From a virus (lineage: Duplodnaviria; Heunggongvirae; Uroviricota; Caudoviricetes): a stretch of DNA of 4,153 bases. This document shows, piece after piece, positions 1 to 4,153 of the stretch. The notes beneath the pieces are model-generated. The model was not told where the DNA came from, searched no databases, and worked only from the letters and a program-made list of their open reading frames with translations. Within the stretch, counting starts at the first letter, position 1. Each line of letters starts with the position of its first letter. The stretch is from positions 1-4,153 of IMG/VR virus record IMGVR_UViG_2703718873_000011; one strand, given 5' to 3'. The translations under genes were made by a program, and so were the position numbers.

Positions 1-1
1 C

Positions 2-277
2 CTGTTCATTGACGAAATGGCGCATCCGTTACAGCCGGTTCGTCTGTCCGGTGATGAACTTCACGGAGAAGATCCATATTACGTCCTGTACGTCACGCCG
101 CGTCAGTGGAATGACTGGTACACCTCGACGTCCGGTAAGGACTGGAACCAGATGATGGTTCGGGCCGTGAACCGTGCAAAAGGTTTTAATCATCCGCTGT
201 TCAAAGGTGAATGTGCGATGTGGCGCAATATCCTGGTTCGTAAGTATGCGGGTATTATAGCGCGGCGATTTTTTTGA
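2..277 (+). CDS. hypothetical protein, C-terminal fragment (5' end outside window)
   Basis: The frame is open from position 2 (codons L-F-I-D-E precede the ATG at 17 with no in-frame stop) to TGA at 275-277. Codon usage looks E. coli-like (CGT/CTG/CCG-rich). It converges on mom and is followed by a stem-loop at 313-347. No family recognised from sequence alone. Confidence 0.45.
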   Translation: MFIDEMAHPLQPVRLSGDELHGEDPYYVLYVTPRQWNDWYTSTSGKDWNQMMVRAVNRAKGFNHPLFKGECAMWRNILVRKYAGIIARRFF

Positions 278-338
278 TACCGATTTGCATTTCATTTGAT
301 ACCGCTGAAAAACGCCGATACGCAACTTATTTGATACT
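273..338. repeat. Four GATAC-core direct repeats in the intergenic region (TTTGATACC at 273-281 and 295-303, CCGATAC at 314-320, TTTGATAC at 330-337)
   Basis: Seen directly in sequence; spacings between GATAC cores are 22, 18 and 17 bp. The first copy overlaps the stop codon of the left-edge CDS. Function unknown (possible protein-binding sites). Confidence 0.3.
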
Positions 339-347
339 AAATCGGCG
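313..347. terminator. Putative bidirectional terminator-like stem-loop between convergent genes
   Basis: CGCCGAT (313-319) is the exact reverse complement of ATCGGCG (341-347), giving a 7-bp stem. It is flanked by A5 (308-312) upstream and CTTTTCTTTT (348-357) downstream, so a U-tract follows the stem on either strand. The 21-nt loop is longer than in canonical intrinsic terminators, hence low confidence. Confidence 0.3.
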
Positions 348-383
348 CTTTTCTTTTGAGTTTTAGAATGAGTTTTTAAGCGC

Positions 384-1121
384 TCATTCACTCTCTTTCA
401 AACCAGTTTTAACTGTTTGTGGTTTTGGGTAAGGCTGGACTTTGAATAGCTTTGTGTTGAGGCGTTTTCTGGCCCTCTTGTTCAGAAACCGGATGTAACG
501 AAACTGTCGGAACTTATGCACACTGGCTCTGTCGATATTAGCCCTCAGATGTTCACCTCGTTGTCCGCCTCGTTTAATGGCACTCCTGCAAATCTCGTGA
601 TACCACTCGCCATCAAGTTCATAGAATGTTGATTCATGGCTGCCTACATAATCAAAATTGCTTGCCTGATACACGACACCAAGACAGCCACAACGCTCAT
701 CTGCAAACGACTGAACCCACTGTACCTGCGGATAAAGCTGCCTGATTAGCTTGAGCGCGTAACTGATTGCCCTTGATTCGGAGTTTCTCGGCATACAGTC
801 ATGCATCCATAGCCGGTTAAGCTCCATATATTCTCGGTTCTGCGTACCCGTTACGACGCGTGCACCACTGTTTGGGTTAAGGGCGTAACCCCATTGCATT
901 ACGCCAACAAGTTCCCGTTCTGAAAATATACCCAGATGAAGGTAGGAATTATTTACGAAACGGTGGCTGTAATGTTTATTGACGATAACCAGTCTGGCCA
1001 GCCAGCAACTTATTGTCTCAACCCGCAACTCACGGGAGCCATAACCAACGATATTGTCGTTATAGCGAATAAGTTCAGGCGTGCTGATGATACGGGATGT
1101 GACTTGCTTTCTGTTCCCCAC
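384..1121 (-). CDS. mom: Mom-like DNA modification protein (phage Mu Mom family, adenine-modifying, GNAT-like)
   Basis: 245-aa ORF immediately downstream of, and overlapping by 47 nt, a Com-like zinc-finger gene, which is the com-mom operon architecture of phage Mu. Size is close to Mu Mom (about 231 aa). GTG start at 1121-1119 preceded by AAGGAAA 8 nt upstream. The family call rests mainly on context and size; I cannot verify residue-level identity to Mom without a search. Confidence 0.6.
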
Positions 1122-1275
1122 GACAGGATTTCCTTGTGTATGTGGGGTGCTCTGTGGCGCTCGGAGATGTGATTTGATTGAGGGTTTTACAGCGCGGACA
1201 TTTTACTTCCAGATAACTGAAACTGGCCCGTGCCAGTAGCTTATTGCAGTGTCGGCACCGTATGTTTCGATACAT
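1075..1275 (-). CDS. com: Com-like zinc-finger translational activator of mom
   Basis: 66-aa product [30 protein letters not shown]... with C-x2-C at residues 7/10 and C-x2-C at 26/29, matching the phage Mu Com pattern (IRCxxCNKLL ... CPRCK) as I recall it. ATG at 1275-1273 preceded by AGGAGG with 10-nt spacing. TGA stop at 1077-1075 lies inside mom. The TTG at 1320 that opens the track ORF is probably not the real start. Confidence 0.7.
1116..1147 (-). promoter_or_regulatory. Stem-loop sequestering the mom GTG start codon and RBS (candidate translation-inhibitory structure)
   Basis: On the minus-strand mRNA, CCCCAC (from 1147-1142) pairs with GUGGGG (1121-1116), where GUG is the mom start codon. 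The 20-nt loop carries the AAGGAAA Shine-Dalgarno and can form an inner stem (ACAAGG/CCUGU). Complementarity verified by eye; stability not computed. Confidence 0.4.
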
Positions 1276-1320
1276 GGCCGCATAACCTCCTGCTTTGTTG
1301 TTGATGCCTTTCTCATGCAA

Positions 1321-1341
1321 TCGATCGACAAAAACGATCGA
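1321..1341. promoter_or_regulatory. Paired palindromic Dam sites (TCGATCGA ... CGATCGAT) upstream of com
   Basis: GATC at 1323-1326 and 1336-1339, each within a CGATCG palindrome, separated by ACAAAAA; 48-64 bp upstream of the com ATG. Read as analogous to the Dam/OxyR-controlled GATC sites upstream of Mu Pmom, but this is inference. Confidence 0.3.
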
Positions 1342-1440
1342 TTCGATTTGTTTAATTGATACAACAAATAGATTTAAAAGTCATCAACAATGATTCAGGG
1401 CGGTGATTATTTACTTAAAGAAACGAAGAGTTAGGTGGTG

Positions 1441-1462
1441 AAAACGATCATAAAATGATCAT
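1441..1462. promoter_or_regulatory. Second pair of GATC sites in a near-symmetric AT-rich element (AAAACGATCATAAAATGATCATTTT)
   Basis: GATC at 1445-1448 and 1456-1459 within a GATCAT direct repeat flanked by A4/T4; a further GATC at 1492-1495. All in the com / zinc-ribbon intergenic region. Confidence 0.25.
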
Positions 1463-1504
1463 TTTATTGACTTTTTATACAGTGAAGGTAGGATCGCGCG
1501 TATA

Positions 1505-1573
1505 TGTAGTATGTTTCAAATCAACAGGATACTACATAAAAGGGAAACCCAGCATAGCTGGAACTATGCTGGG
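1505..1573 (-). terminator. Tandem perfect hairpins; on the minus strand the second is followed by a U-rich tract (terminator or insulator candidate, alternatively a structured sRNA or operator)
   Basis: Hairpin A: TGTAGTAT (1505-1512) / ATACTACA (1529-1536), 8-bp stem with 16-nt loop. Hairpin B: CCCAGCATAG (1548-1557) / CTATGCTGGG (1564-1573), perfect 10-bp stem with 6-nt loop. On the minus strand hairpin B is followed by UUUCCCUUUUAUG (complement of 1535-1547). Confidence 0.35.
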
Positions 1574-1681
1574 TCAATCTGTAAAAACTTGCATCAATGC
1601 TTTACTTCGAGCTCGTGGCGTATCCTATGATATTCCCCGGTCTCCTGTAAAGCAGAGATGCATAAAAAGGAGATCTTTATC

Positions 1682-1852
1682 ATGGATAAAGAGCCTGTTT
1701 GCCCTGCCTGTAAGACTCCCTTACAGCTCATCTATCGCCGTTCTCGATCTCAAAATGGCAAGACATACAAACCAAAAAATGCTTCCTGTTTCAGGATGCT
1801 GATATGTCCGGCCTGTTCTCCCCGGAGGGAAAATACACAAAACGTGCATTAA
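1682..1852 (+). CDS. Small zinc-ribbon protein (56 aa), putative DNA/RNA-binding regulator
   Basis: ATG at 1682 preceded by AAGGAG (1667-1672) with 9-nt spacing. Product MDKEPVCPACKTPLQLIYRRSRSQNGKTYKPKNASCFRMLICPACSP... has C-x2-C at 7/10 and C-x2-C at 42/45, plus Cys36. Stop TAA at 1850-1852. Transcribed divergently from com. The track ORF at 1658 starts 8 codons earlier with no RBS. Confidence 0.5.
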   Translation: MDKEPVCPACKTPLQLIYRRSRSQNGKTYKPKNASCFRMLICPACSPRRENTQNVH

Positions 1853-1861
1853 CAAATTCAC

Positions 1862-1881
1862 CCGGCAGGGAAACCTGCCGG
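1862..1881. terminator. Putative bidirectional terminator hairpin between convergent genes
   Basis: CCGGCAGG (1862-1869) + GAAA loop + CCTGCCGG (1874-1881), a perfect 8-bp GC-rich stem with tetraloop. It lies 10 nt after the zinc-ribbon stop on plus and 10 nt after the 81-aa ORF stop on minus. Downstream tracts are moderately U-rich on both strands (UCGGUAUUGUU / GUGAAUUUGUU). Confidence 0.45.
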
Positions 1882-1890
1882 TCGGTATTG

Positions 1891-2136
1891 TTACATCATA
1901 GTACCGTCAGTTCCGGGTTGAACCGGCTCTGGTTGCTCTACGGGTTGAGGCTCATTTTCCGTGCTGTTTTCAGCCGGAGAACGACCAACCATTCGGGCCA
2001 GCACTTCATCAACATATGCGTCGATTTGTGCCTCAAAATCCTTGCGAACCTGCGCCTTCAGCACGCGGTTCACTTCTTCAGAATAAAGTGCCTGTTTGAC
2101 AAGCTCTTCAGTAACCGTGCCTTTAATCTCTGGCAT
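1891..2136 (-). CDS. hypothetical small acidic protein (81 aa)
   Basis: ATG at 2136-2134 preceded by AAGGAG with 7-nt spacing; TAA stop at 1893-1891. The N-terminal 50 aa look helical and amphipathic; the C-terminal 30 aa are Pro/Glu/Gln-rich (PQPVEQPEPVQP) and likely disordered. No family recognised. Confidence 0.6.
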   Translation of the reverse strand: MPEIKGTVTEELVKQALYSEEVNRVLKAQVRKDFEAQIDAYVDEVLARMVGRSPAENSTENEPQPVEQPEPVQPGTDGTMM

Positions 2137-2171
2137 GAATATTCTCCTTTCCTTTTCTGGTTCACAAAAAA

Positions 2172-2351
2172 TTAAATCTGACCGGAGTCTTTCGGCTGCG
2201 GCATTACAGCACCGCTTTTTATCTTTTCCTCGGCAGCTGCATCAATTTTATTTCGAAAATAATTGCGAATAATTTTATAACCACCGCTGACAAGCAACAG
2301 ACAACAAACCACCGTGCAGAAATACAGCAGGCAGACGTTTATATATGTCAT
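2172..2351 (-). CDS. Small single-pass membrane peptide (59 aa), not in the supplied ORF track
   Basis: My own translation of the minus strand: ATG at 2351-2349, TAA at 2174-2172, product MTYINVCLLYFCTVVCCLLLVSGGYKIIRNYFRNKIDAAAEEKIKSGAVMPQPKDSGQI. One Cys-rich hydrophobic segment of about 22 residues is followed by a basic then acidic tail (positive-inside topology). GAGG lies 5 nt upstream of the ATG. It fills the otherwise empty 272-bp gap between the esterase gene and the 81-aa ORF. Confidence 0.4.
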   Translation of the reverse strand: MTYINVCLLYFCTVVCCLLLVSGGYKIIRNYFRNKIDAAAEEKIKSGAVMPQPKDSGQI

Positions 2352-2408
2352 ATAAGCCTCACTCTTATTAACTGATGTTACAGCCGGATAAATTCCCGGC
2401 CGTCACGA

Positions 2409-4153
2409 TTATGCCGCAGGGGTATTAACCTCAAGGACAACGCTCTCAAAAGACACGCCATAAGTTGCCCCTTTGGTGACATCTGTCAGTGTCAGCGTAT
2501 CTTTGGCAGGGGAAAGTGCATCTTTCACCATCTGGAATGCCTGGCCCGGAGTGCCATCCAGCACAGGCGTTACCTGGGCACTTCCCGCCGTAAACTTCAG
2601 GACAAGTGTATGCCACTGGTTATTGTAGGCTCCAAATGATCCCAGTTTCGTATTCCCCCCTGTTTTATGGTGCATCAGATTTAACTGGCCGCCTGTTGTC
2701 TGGAGATAATACGCCATCAGGAACGGTGTGCCTGTACCACTCATGGTTACACCTTCCGGGACCGTATCGGTGTGGAGGTAAATACCCAGAGCAAACTGGC
2801 CTTCTTTTACTTCACCTGACAGACGGAATTTACAGGTCAACTGACCACCATGCTTCAGAAGTTCACCGGCTGCATCAGTTCCATGGGTAAGCGTCCAGGT
2901 TTTTCCGCTTTGTTTGGATACGGTCAACGCTTTACCTTCGTCCGTCAGCTGGATTGTACCATCTGTAATTTTCCAGCCCTGAGCCGGGGCTTCTCCTGCT
3001 GATGCTTTAAGTGAAAGCAGCGTACGGAGTGACGGGGATGTCGGATGGGGGGACTCACTGCCTCCTGGCTGACTACCTGTCGGCGCTTCCGGTTTCCCAC
3101 CCGGCGCGGGCTGAGGCAGGGCTTCACCATCAGGGGCCACACCGGCAATAAATGCAGAGGTCAGACCTGCATATTTAAGAATTGCTGATGCAAAACGATC
3201 TGAGACCAGAAAACGGCGCGCCCAGGAGCTAAAATGGGTTGCCCTGGATGCTGTTGTCCAGTTGCCATCTCCCCGTGATTCCGCACCATAATACCCGGCA
3301 GAAGCGATATCCGGGTCGTGCTCCGGCAGGTTGGTCGCGGTTTTATTACCGAACTCATCGTGCATCAGTGGAACAAAGTGAATGTTCTCGGAAGCCCGGT
3401 TTTTATATCCGCTATAAATGGTTTCATATGCCGCCGGGTTCTTCTCTTTCCAGTCATAGGTTGTGTCACCACATAACCACGGCACACTGTCTGATGAACC
3501 ACCAATACACTGACCGGAGAAAGCACCAAGATCCGCACGGAATTTTTTCACCATCGCAGTAAACTGGGCACCATGCTGGGCCGGGGTCGCTTTAAGGTCT
3601 CCTTCCCCCTGAATCCATACGACAGATAACAGCACATTCTTTGGATTCGCCTCAAGTGCCGCTTTAGTTCGACTGACAAGATCCTGATACAGTGGGGTAT
3701 CCACTCCCCAGCGTAGTGACGCCTCGGCTGCACCACTTGCCGGATCGAATGAGCCAACTGCGCCGGTTGTAAAAGCAGAGCCGCCACGGGCACAGGGAAC
3801 CAGTAAAATCCCGGCATCAGCAGGAATCACCGGTAATACTTTTTTCGCAATATGAAGTCCCTGCCCCACACAACCATACTGCCCTTTTTTCAGGTCTGCT
3901 TTTGGATGGTTCAGCAGACTCATATTCTGAACATCATGAAGGCAGTGATCTGCTGGAATGATTTCATTGTATTTGCAGGGAATACCTCCGGGGGTTTGTG
4001 TATTCCTGCGTGCCAGCTGCATAATACGTGGATCAGGACGATCATAAGAATCCGGAAGGGGCAACCCTTCACCATAAGATGAAGCATTGGACTGGCCGGC
4101 TATAACAATCACGTAATACCAGGAAGGGGAGCTGGAAGCAGTTTCATTTCCTG
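2409..4153 (-). CDS. SGNH/SASA-family carbohydrate O-acetylesterase, prophage NanS-p-like (partial; N-terminus outside window), with C-terminal beta-rich putative carbohydrate-binding domain
   Basis: The frame stays open upstream of the GTG at 4112 to the window edge (…GNETASSSPSWYYVIVIAGQSNA…). The GQSN motif after a hydrophobic beta-strand is the block-I signature of SASA/DUF303 sialate O-acetylesterases. A Pro/Ser/Gly-rich linker (PQPAPGGKPEAPTGSQPGGSESPHPTSPS) precedes a C-terminal domain of about 200 aa. At least 581 aa are visible, consistent with prophage NanS-p proteins of roughly 645 aa that carry an extra N-terminal domain (from memory). TAA stop at 2411-2409. Confidence 0.8.
   Translation of the reverse strand, partial: GNETASSSPSWYYVIVIAGQSNASSYGEGLPLPDSYDRPDPRIMQLARRNTQTPGGIPCKYNEIIPADHCLHDVQNMSLLNHPKADLKKGQYGCVGQGLHIAKKVLPVIPADAGILLVPCARGGSAFTTGAVGSFDPASGAAEASLRWGVDTPLYQDLVSRTKAALEANPKNVLLSVVWIQGEGDLKATPAQHGAQFTAMVKKFRADLGAFSGQCIGGSSDSVPWLCGDTTYDWKEKNPAAYETIYSGYKNRASENIHFVPLMHDEFGNKTATNLPEHDPDIASAGYYGAESRGDGNWTTASRATHFSSWARRFLVSDRFASAILKYAGLTSAFIAGVAPDGEALPQPAPGGKPEAPTGSQPGGSESPHPTSPSLRTLLSLKASAGEAPAQGWKITDGTIQLTDEGKALTVSKQSGKTWTLTHGTDAAGELLKHGGQLTCKFRLSGEVKEGQFALGIYLHTDTVPEGVTMSGTGTPFLMAYYLQTTGGQLNLMHHKTGGNTKLGSFGAYNNQWHTLVLKFTAGSAQVTPVLDGTPGQAFQMVKDALSPAKDTLTLTDVTKGATYGVSFESVVLEVNTPAA

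Follow-up and report, generated by a model that had tools for sequence, protein, structure and literature searches.

A predicted sialate O-acetylesterase of the NanS-p type carried by an Sp18-type Mu-like prophage

NanS-p enzymes are thought to help those Escherichia coli that make Shiga toxin (Stx) live on the O-acetylated sialic acids of mucus, and several copies of the gene are present per genome. Two features are usual for this family, an N-terminal DUF1737 domain and a location in the lambdoid late region (Q, stx or an equivalent, nanS-p, holin), and in the Stx phages PA2, BP-4795 and 933W the genes are ordered Q, stxAB, esterase, small open reading frames (ORFs) and holin. Here we analyze a stretch of 4,153 nucleotides (nt), referred to as the window, from an IMG/VR record of a Caudoviricetes virus (IMGVR_UViG_2703718873_000011, positions 1 to 4,153), in which a gene on the minus strand, between gin and com/mom, encodes a protein that groups functionally with NanS-p yet lacks both features. 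We propose that it is a functional NanS-p-type sialate O-acetylesterase and the first gene of a cargo module, which occupies the right-end region of a Mu-like prophage of the Sp18 type, and we regard this explanation as a whole as very probable. It is built on what the analysis shows directly: the homology, the fold, retention of the catalytic blocks, the order of the genes and the movement of the element. A Mu-borne NanS-p did not turn up in the literature that could be searched, although the gene has been in the databases since the Sakai genome was deposited.

The Stx-phage NanS-p proteins, such as L0105/z1466 of 933W and vb_24B_21 (gp84) of phi24B, share with the window protein the SASA/SGNH blocks, the linker and the C-terminal jelly roll, and they are likewise carried by prophages, with DUF1378 and DUF826 genes downstream. 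The order esterase-DUF1378-DUF826 is common to the lambdoid Stx phages and the locus described here, at 45-59% protein identity (see also PMC10462455), and no DNA similarity to lambdoid phages was found across these three genes in the phage collection. Unlike these proteins, the enzyme of the window has an all-beta N-terminal domain of ~80 amino acids (aa) rather than DUF1737, its carrier is a Mu-like transposable myovirus rather than a lambdoid phage, and its gene neither follows stx or Q nor precedes a holin gene. The chromosomal NanS (YjhS, structure 3PT5) is homologous to the catalytic domain along its full length and has the blocks GQSNA, RGGSAF, QGE-D and R-x-(S/T)-HFS, but it is a single-domain protein of ~330 aa with no counterpart of the N-terminal domain, linker or lectin-like domain.

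Two further systems serve to place the locus rather than the protein. In prophage Sp18 of E. coli O157:H7 Sakai the same slot among ECs_4992-4998 is occupied by ECs_4993, which is annotated as 'hypothetical protein', and the genes are ordered as they are here (invertase, esterase, DUF1378, DUF826, opposite-strand ORF, com and mom). The N-terminal domain of ECs_4993 is 97-98% identical to that of the window protein in its full-length form, while its catalytic domain, linker and lectin domain, together with DUF1378, represent a different allele with ~54% aa identity. The right end of phage Mu shares the Dam-site dyad, com, mom and the transposon end, with only gin (70% DNA identity) and mom (71%) aligning. 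In Mu the gin-com gap is 95 bp and contains Pmom, whereas here ~3.3 kb of cargo is found in that place, with the gin stop and the Dam-site motif as its exact borders.

The esterase and its domains

The esterase frame (2409..4151, minus strand; 580 codons plus stop, 1743 nt) is open up to the window edge, with its first base at 4151 and a terminal TAA at 2411-2409, and its 5' end is cut by that edge so that ~310 nt encoding the N-terminal domain fall past the window end. The product is predicted to be a NanS-p-type sialate O-acetylesterase, of which the window holds the last 580 of 682-685 residues. The FORC_028 protein WP_052067829.1 (685 aa) is 100% identical to the window esterase, and the cluster to which it belongs (P0001) has 535 member sequences. 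The initial annotation had proposed a NanS-p-like esterase from a GQSN signature, a Pro/Ser/Gly-rich linker and a C-terminal domain of ~200 aa. All three are present on the minus strand, and the proposal is borne out by the matches to 3PT5 and 6YP6, by Pfam and by 50-61% identity to Stx-phage NanS-p.

The SGNH/SASA catalytic domain (3171..4145, minus strand) is defined by phmmer to 3PT5 and by Pfam. In a phmmer search of solved structures, E. coli NanS/YjhS (3PT5) is matched by full-length residues 108-432 at E=3.7e-110, and the Pfam SASA family (PF03629) is found in the window esterase at E=1e-13, above its cut-off. The GQSNA block is located at residues 19-23 (nt 4083-4097), with Ser21 as the catalytic serine in window numbering, and is followed by RGGSAF at nt 3771-3788, IQGEGD at nt 3597-3614 and RATHFS at nt 3228-3245, the last of which contains His306 (window numbering). 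The SGNH blocks of 3PT5 are given as GQSNA, RGGSAF, MQGEFD and R-x-SHFS in PMC10792757, with which all four blocks of the window esterase agree, and they are invariant in an alignment of six alleles, 933W, BP-4795 and three others included.

The catalytic domain is followed by an interdomain linker of 36 aa (residues 339-374; 3030..3137, minus strand), defined by its composition. It contains ten Pro, six Gly and five Ser, such that P+G+S make up 58% of the linker and 26% of the whole protein, and both its sequence and its length differ from allele to allele. The remainder is a lectin-like jelly-roll domain (DUF6645; residues 376-577; 2421..3026, minus strand), as supported by 6YP6, Pfam and an AlphaFold (AF2) model. 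Full-length residues 481-682 match phi24B NanS-p's C-terminal domain as solved by crystallography (6YP6) with E=9.7e-42, and Pfam assigns DUF6645 (PF20350) at E=6e-26. The AF2 model of the domain has a predicted local distance difference test (pLDDT) score of 89.6, and the top Foldseek match of the model is 6YP6 (template modeling (TM) score 0.90, E=3e-21). It is followed by L-type lectins (VIP36, ERGIC-53 and legume lectins), and the model also resembles the sialic-acid-binding domain of the Vibrio cholerae sialidase, which is ranked after 6YP6. The earlier suggestion that the C-terminal domain is lectin-like is supported by both the 6YP6 homology and these structural neighbors.

The N-terminal domain was examined in the full-length 685-aa protein of the 100%-identical loci. 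A DUF1737-type domain had been suggested to lie just past 4153, and these loci carry a different, all-beta domain instead. No DUF1737 (PF08410) match was obtained in the first 106 residues with Pfam even at E<=10, while the N-terminus of the 933W protein, used as a positive control, scores E=7e-20, and profile-profile comparison of the N-domain with DUF1737 (hhalign) gives a probability of 0.4%. The AlphaFold model is all-beta, with residues 1-78 at pLDDT 80-89 forming a unit of ~80 residues, whereas DUF1737 has been described as a helix plus three strands (bioRxiv 10.64898/2026.04.10.717836). Fold searches with the N-domain returned only generic cupin-like matches. The domain is found only in fusion with these esterases (five matches in 1.84 billion representatives), and the linker that follows it has an SSP motif resembling the proposed NanS-p cleavage motif.

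The N-domain is also seen, in a 60%-identical and likewise non-DUF1737 version, on a metagenome contig from ENA of 3149 bp (L009), where the esterase runs directly into a lambdoid lysis cassette (holin, DUF1327 and lysozyme) and neither DUF1378 nor DUF826 is present. This contig may come from the lambdoid lineage in which the N-domain originated, or it may be a chimera of the assembly. Owing to it, although as a short metagenome assembly it is an uncertain exception, we rejected the idea that the N-domain is strictly tied to Mu-type phages. Another relative of NanS-p (P0029, 752 aa) has a tail-collar domain (PF07484) that interrupts or extends its C-terminal domain, which suggests that some NanS-p alleles are fused to fibre-like modules.

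The Mu-like prophage and the exchangeable cassette

Bases 256-4153 are assigned by sequence identity to a transposable Mu-like prophage of the Sp18 type, of which they form the right end. More than 40 complete E. coli genomes contain a single block that matches this segment at 99.6-100% identity, and the genes at the right end run in the order Gin invertase, esterase, DUF1378, DUF826, Com and Mom. FORC_028 has the block as the right end of an entire Mu-type prophage of ~38.7 kb inserted in ybbA, which encodes repressor, ner, MuA, MuB, gam, mor and lysis functions, followed by head, contractile tail, baseplate, an invertible fibre segment and then Gin, esterase, DUF1378, DUF826, Com and Mom. 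Gene order of the FORC_028 type is kept in all 12 of the 12 IMG/VR loci, and the same order is found at each of the ten sites that encode the exact Mom protein, which have ten different host flanks. The characteristic Mu-like features (MuA/MuB, c/ner, gam, mor, head, tail, G segment/Gin and com-mom) are present in both FORC_028 and Sakai Sp18. As expected of a transposable element, the block is located at many unrelated sites and its identity ends at a fixed terminus, 255/256. Among 5426 complete genomes of E. coli, 43-47 carry the esterase allele itself, which lies on a Mu-type backbone or a rearranged remnant in the subset of matches whose context was inspected.

The left edge of the window has a different origin. 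Bases 1-255 (plus strand) are a fragment of the major head gene of an Stx-type phage (933W L0116), with 99.6% identity to 186 Stx-phage records. The fragment corresponds to 933W 35251-35505 and to the major head family phrog_334 (E=3e-177), and the gene is in frame on the plus strand and cut by the insertion after about codon 301 of 404. In our interpretation, a Mu-like prophage transposed into an Stx-type lambdoid prophage and landed in its major head gene. Since the head gene is cut, the resident Stx-type prophage should not make its own capsids, and by 933W coordinates its stx and its own nanS-p would be found ~10-12 kb leftward of base 1, with stx at about 12 kb. The fusion ORF extends by a few codons into Mu-like sequence, with its stop at 277.

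Insertion of Sp18-like phages into Stx phages has been documented (PMC10132054). Two of the loci collected here (L005 and L002) are Mu_JNE phages inside the Stx phages LC727881 and LC727895. In these com is kept and mom was undetected, and the esterase has the same N-domain with another catalytic/lectin allele (~60% aa identity).

Comparison with Sp18 at the DNA level delimits the part of the locus that has been exchanged. Identity is 95-100% across gin, the intergenic region and the N-domain. At about window position 4115, where the catalytic domain starts, it falls sharply to ~70% and then to <40%, and it is back to 98-100% just before DUF826 (about 2150). The interval from ~2150 to ~4115 is thus identified as a swapped cassette of ~2 kb relative to Sakai Sp18, with which the esterase part of the window (2409-4153) nearly coincides. 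At least four catalytic/lectin alleles are found on the same Mu backbone, with identities of 96-100% in the N-domain, 67-100% in the catalytic domain and 33-100% in the C-terminal domain, and the sharp borders of the cassette show how the enzyme and lectin parts diversify. Among the matches inspected in complete E. coli genomes, the cassette occurs only on a Mu-type backbone or a rearranged remnant of one. A recent lambdoid donor of the cassette was also considered and was rejected, as there is no DNA-level match in the phage collection.

Possible roles of a Mu-borne NanS-p

The substrate, expression timing, release route and host benefit of such an enzyme are inferred. The Ser-His SGNH domain would strip O-acetyl groups off sialic acids such as neuraminic acid with 5-N-acetyl and 9-O-acetyl groups (Neu5,9Ac2), and the flexible linker would join it to the lectin-like jelly roll, which probably holds the enzyme on sialoglycans. 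The lectin-like domain would in this way raise the local substrate concentration, as is suggested by homology and by the proposal of Franke et al. to which PMC10462455 and PMC8065619 refer. The esterase, DUF1378 and DUF826 genes would form a three-gene cargo module between gin and the com-mom operon. No terminator-like site is present between gin and the esterase, so transcripts of gin or of the late tail genes might read through into it. Hydropathy reveals no signal-like hydrophobic segment at the N-terminus of the esterase and hence lysis is the simplest route of release, in which case the enzyme would reach the mucus when cells are lysed by induced phage, or possibly on the virion, and O-acetylated sialic acids would be made usable for the surviving lysogen population.

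Several points weigh against this proposal. The 43-nt insertion junction has no match in viral, genome or metagenome contigs and is spanned by no complete E. coli genome, so that the DNA beyond 4153 is taken from identical loci. Promoter prediction gave nothing convincing 5' of the esterase, where candidate sites are no commoner than in shuffled sequence. Identity of the allele to other 90% clusters reaches ~67% at most, and to the Sp18 allele it is 54%. Activity on Neu5,9Ac2 and mucin is reported for other alleles only, namely NanS-p of EDL933 and O104:H4 (PMC8065619), which counts in favor of the predicted chemistry. The proposed sugar site speaks both ways: Y510, Y515, Y540 and F611 of vb_24B_21 are proposed as sugar-binding aromatics in PMC10462455, and the residues aligned to them here are F, Y, Y and P, of which three are aromatic and the fourth, Pro, is at a position that adjoins an indel.

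The preferred explanation has consequences beyond this locus. NanS-p is also carried by a transposable Mu-like phage that inserts almost anywhere, Stx phages included, and the Mu-borne gene is outside the late control of the Q/stx type and would spread independently of toxin phages. Counts of nanS-p that are limited to the region 3' of stx, or to DUF1737 searches, miss the Mu-borne copies.

The newly reported role of DUF1737 as a capsid anchor means that its replacement here raises the question of whether these enzymes act for the phage particle or for the lysogen. In phi24B, gp84 is a capsid decoration protein in which DUF1737 plugs the hexons and the enzyme part is later cleaved (bioRxiv 10.64898/2026.04.10.717836). 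By analogy, the N-domain described here might anchor the esterase and lectin parts to the Mu-like particle, the main role being mucus adhesion or access rather than feeding of the lysogen, and this is compatible with the same enzyme chemistry. Besides the precedent of gp84, such display would fit the retention of the N-domain with the Mu backbone (96-100%) while the catalytic and lectin parts are swapped, the position of the gene directly after the fibre/gin region, the resemblance of the SSP motif to the proposed cleavage motif, and the occurrence of the N-domain solely in fusion with these esterases. Against it, retention of the N-domain would be expected in any case, as the lambdoid alleles offer no homologous partner segment; the 60%-identical N-domain on contig L009 precedes an esterase with lambdoid holin/DUF1327/lysozyme genes; and the resemblance of the N-domain to cupin-like structures is only generic. 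We think it rather unlikely that display on the virion is the main role.

A broader version, to which we give equally little credence, is that unrelated temperate E. coli phages share one 'mucus tool' cassette of ~2 kb comprising the esterase, the lectin domain and DUF1378, each phage with its own N-terminal anchor and with the Mu-borne enzyme on the particle. DUF1737 would then be the anchor for lambdoid podovirus capsids and the all-beta domain the anchor of Sp18-type myoviruses, and recombination would shuffle the cassette at the catalytic domain's conserved start.

The neighborhood of tail-fibre genes also brings up a receptor-modifying tail accessory, an SGNH deacetylase that would act on O-acetylated O-antigen or a sialic-acid capsule and aid adsorption. 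A weak match to a PHROG 'tail protein' family (E=1e-6 over ~100 residues) and the tail-collar domain of relative P0029 point in this direction, and a role for NanS-p on surface polysaccharides has been raised in a review (PMC8065619). Against this, the same search gives the NanS-p family at E=2e-273, Gin stands between the esterase and the fibre operon, and Pfam detected no trimerisation or fibre-attachment domain in the full-length esterase. Matches to tailspike deacetylases, one of the two outcomes that the initial annotation had named as speaking against its proposals, are far surpassed by those to NanS and NanS-p, and a tail accessory is improbable. It is less probable still that the gene is a decaying or inactive passenger with no current function. 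The adjacent plus-strand ORF is frameshifted and a rearrangement has split the esterase gene of one strain, but the frame is intact over 580 codons (685 in the full loci) with all catalytic blocks conserved, an identical gene is present in ~40 complete genomes and in 535 database sequences, and the C-terminal domain is modeled with confidence.

The context first proposed for the gene, in which esterase genes lie directly 3' of stxAB, was correct for the Stx phages PA2, BP-4795 and 933W and does not apply at this locus. Beyond 4153, where toxin or antiterminator genes had been suggested as a possibility, the identical loci have the N-domain, gin and tail-fibre genes without stxAB or Q. The upstream extension thus enters tail genes and not a Q-regulated late region, the other outcome that had been named as contrary to that context. 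A canonical Stx-phage nanS-p 3' of stxAB in a Q-dependent late operon, with DUF1737 just past 4153, would be the usual arrangement in Stx phages (see also PMC10462455) and an Stx-type phage gene does occur in the window, but this is the least credible of the alternatives since 256-4153 is contiguous Mu-like DNA with com, mom and a transposon end, every identical locus has a non-DUF1737 domain, gin and fibre genes upstream and so refutes it there, the esterase module has no lambdoid DNA similarity, and the Stx-phage fragment is at the far end of the window on the strand opposite to the esterase.

Neighboring genes and control sequences

The second cargo gene (2172..2351, minus strand) encodes a DUF1378 protein of 59 aa (Pfam E=9e-24) that has a single hydrophobic helix at its N-terminus by hydropathy, and a homologue also lies 3' of the esterase in BP-4795 and PA2. 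The third (1891..2136, minus strand) encodes a DUF826 protein of 81 aa (Pfam E=3e-15) that has a homologue 3' of the esterase in PA2 and is 99% identical to Sp18 ECs_4995. Directly after the DUF826 stop, a reading of the sequence reveals a GC-rich hairpin, CCGGCAGG-TTTC-CCTGCCGG (1862..1881, minus strand), with a folding free energy (dG) of -20.6 kcal/mol with flanks. It sits between the converging DUF826 and ECs_4996-like ORFs and is a possible candidate terminator common to both, although the consensus terminator scan made no call there. A second hairpin on the minus strand (1546-1575) has a 13-bp stem, a U-rich tail and a dG of about -22 kcal/mol with flanks. The location of the two hairpins between DUF826 and the com control region suggests that the esterase unit is separate from com-mom.

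The com control region is represented by a Dam-site dyad, ATCGATCG-N8-GATCGATT (1319..1342, minus strand), located 5' of com by local alignment to Mu. With its two GATC sites it is the counterpart of the Dam/OxyR control region of Mu Pmom, which directly follows the Mu gin stop, and the distance from the dyad to the com ATG is ~43 nt here versus ~72 nt in Mu. The com gene (1075..1275, minus strand) encodes a zinc-ribbon translational activator of 66 aa (Pfam Zn_ribbon_Com E=3e-12, and PGAP), and mom (384..1121, minus strand) a DNA modification enzyme of 245 aa (Pfam Mom E=8.5e-77). No motif was found in common between the upstream regions of the esterase and com, and an Rfam scan of the window gave no matches. 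Converging on the esterase operon is a frameshifted copy of Sp18 ECs_4996 (1390..1852, plus strand; 154 aa when intact), labeled 'frameshifted' by PGAP, placed in two frames by tblastn and matched to phrog_26524. This ORF has no Pfam family and ends in a C-terminal CPAC...CPAC zinc ribbon.

The right terminus of the Mu-like prophage (256..383) contains repeated GATACCG motifs, which may be candidate transposase-binding sites, and was placed by the start of identity at 255/256. It opens with TATAGCGCGG, versus TG in Mu (window 256-330). The FORC_028 prophage is bordered by TGCT on each side, which is 4 bp whereas Mu duplicates 5 bp, and the annotation of LC727895 likewise lists a 4-bp duplication. 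The tail-fibre assembly gene lies 5' of gin in both orientations (L013, L021, L022, L030 and L031 versus the other Mu-type loci), and the presence of both orientations in otherwise near-identical prophages directly shows an active invertible segment of the G type. In E. coli 2014C-3011 (L035; NZ_CP027591.1, 4578180-4598003) a rearrangement splits both the prophage and the esterase gene in two, with one part adjoining Gin and the other adjoining a partial integrase and insertion sequence (IS) elements. Finally, PGAP annotates a 'tRNA-OTHER' within the head-gene region of one Mu-like prophage (L001:40981-41060).

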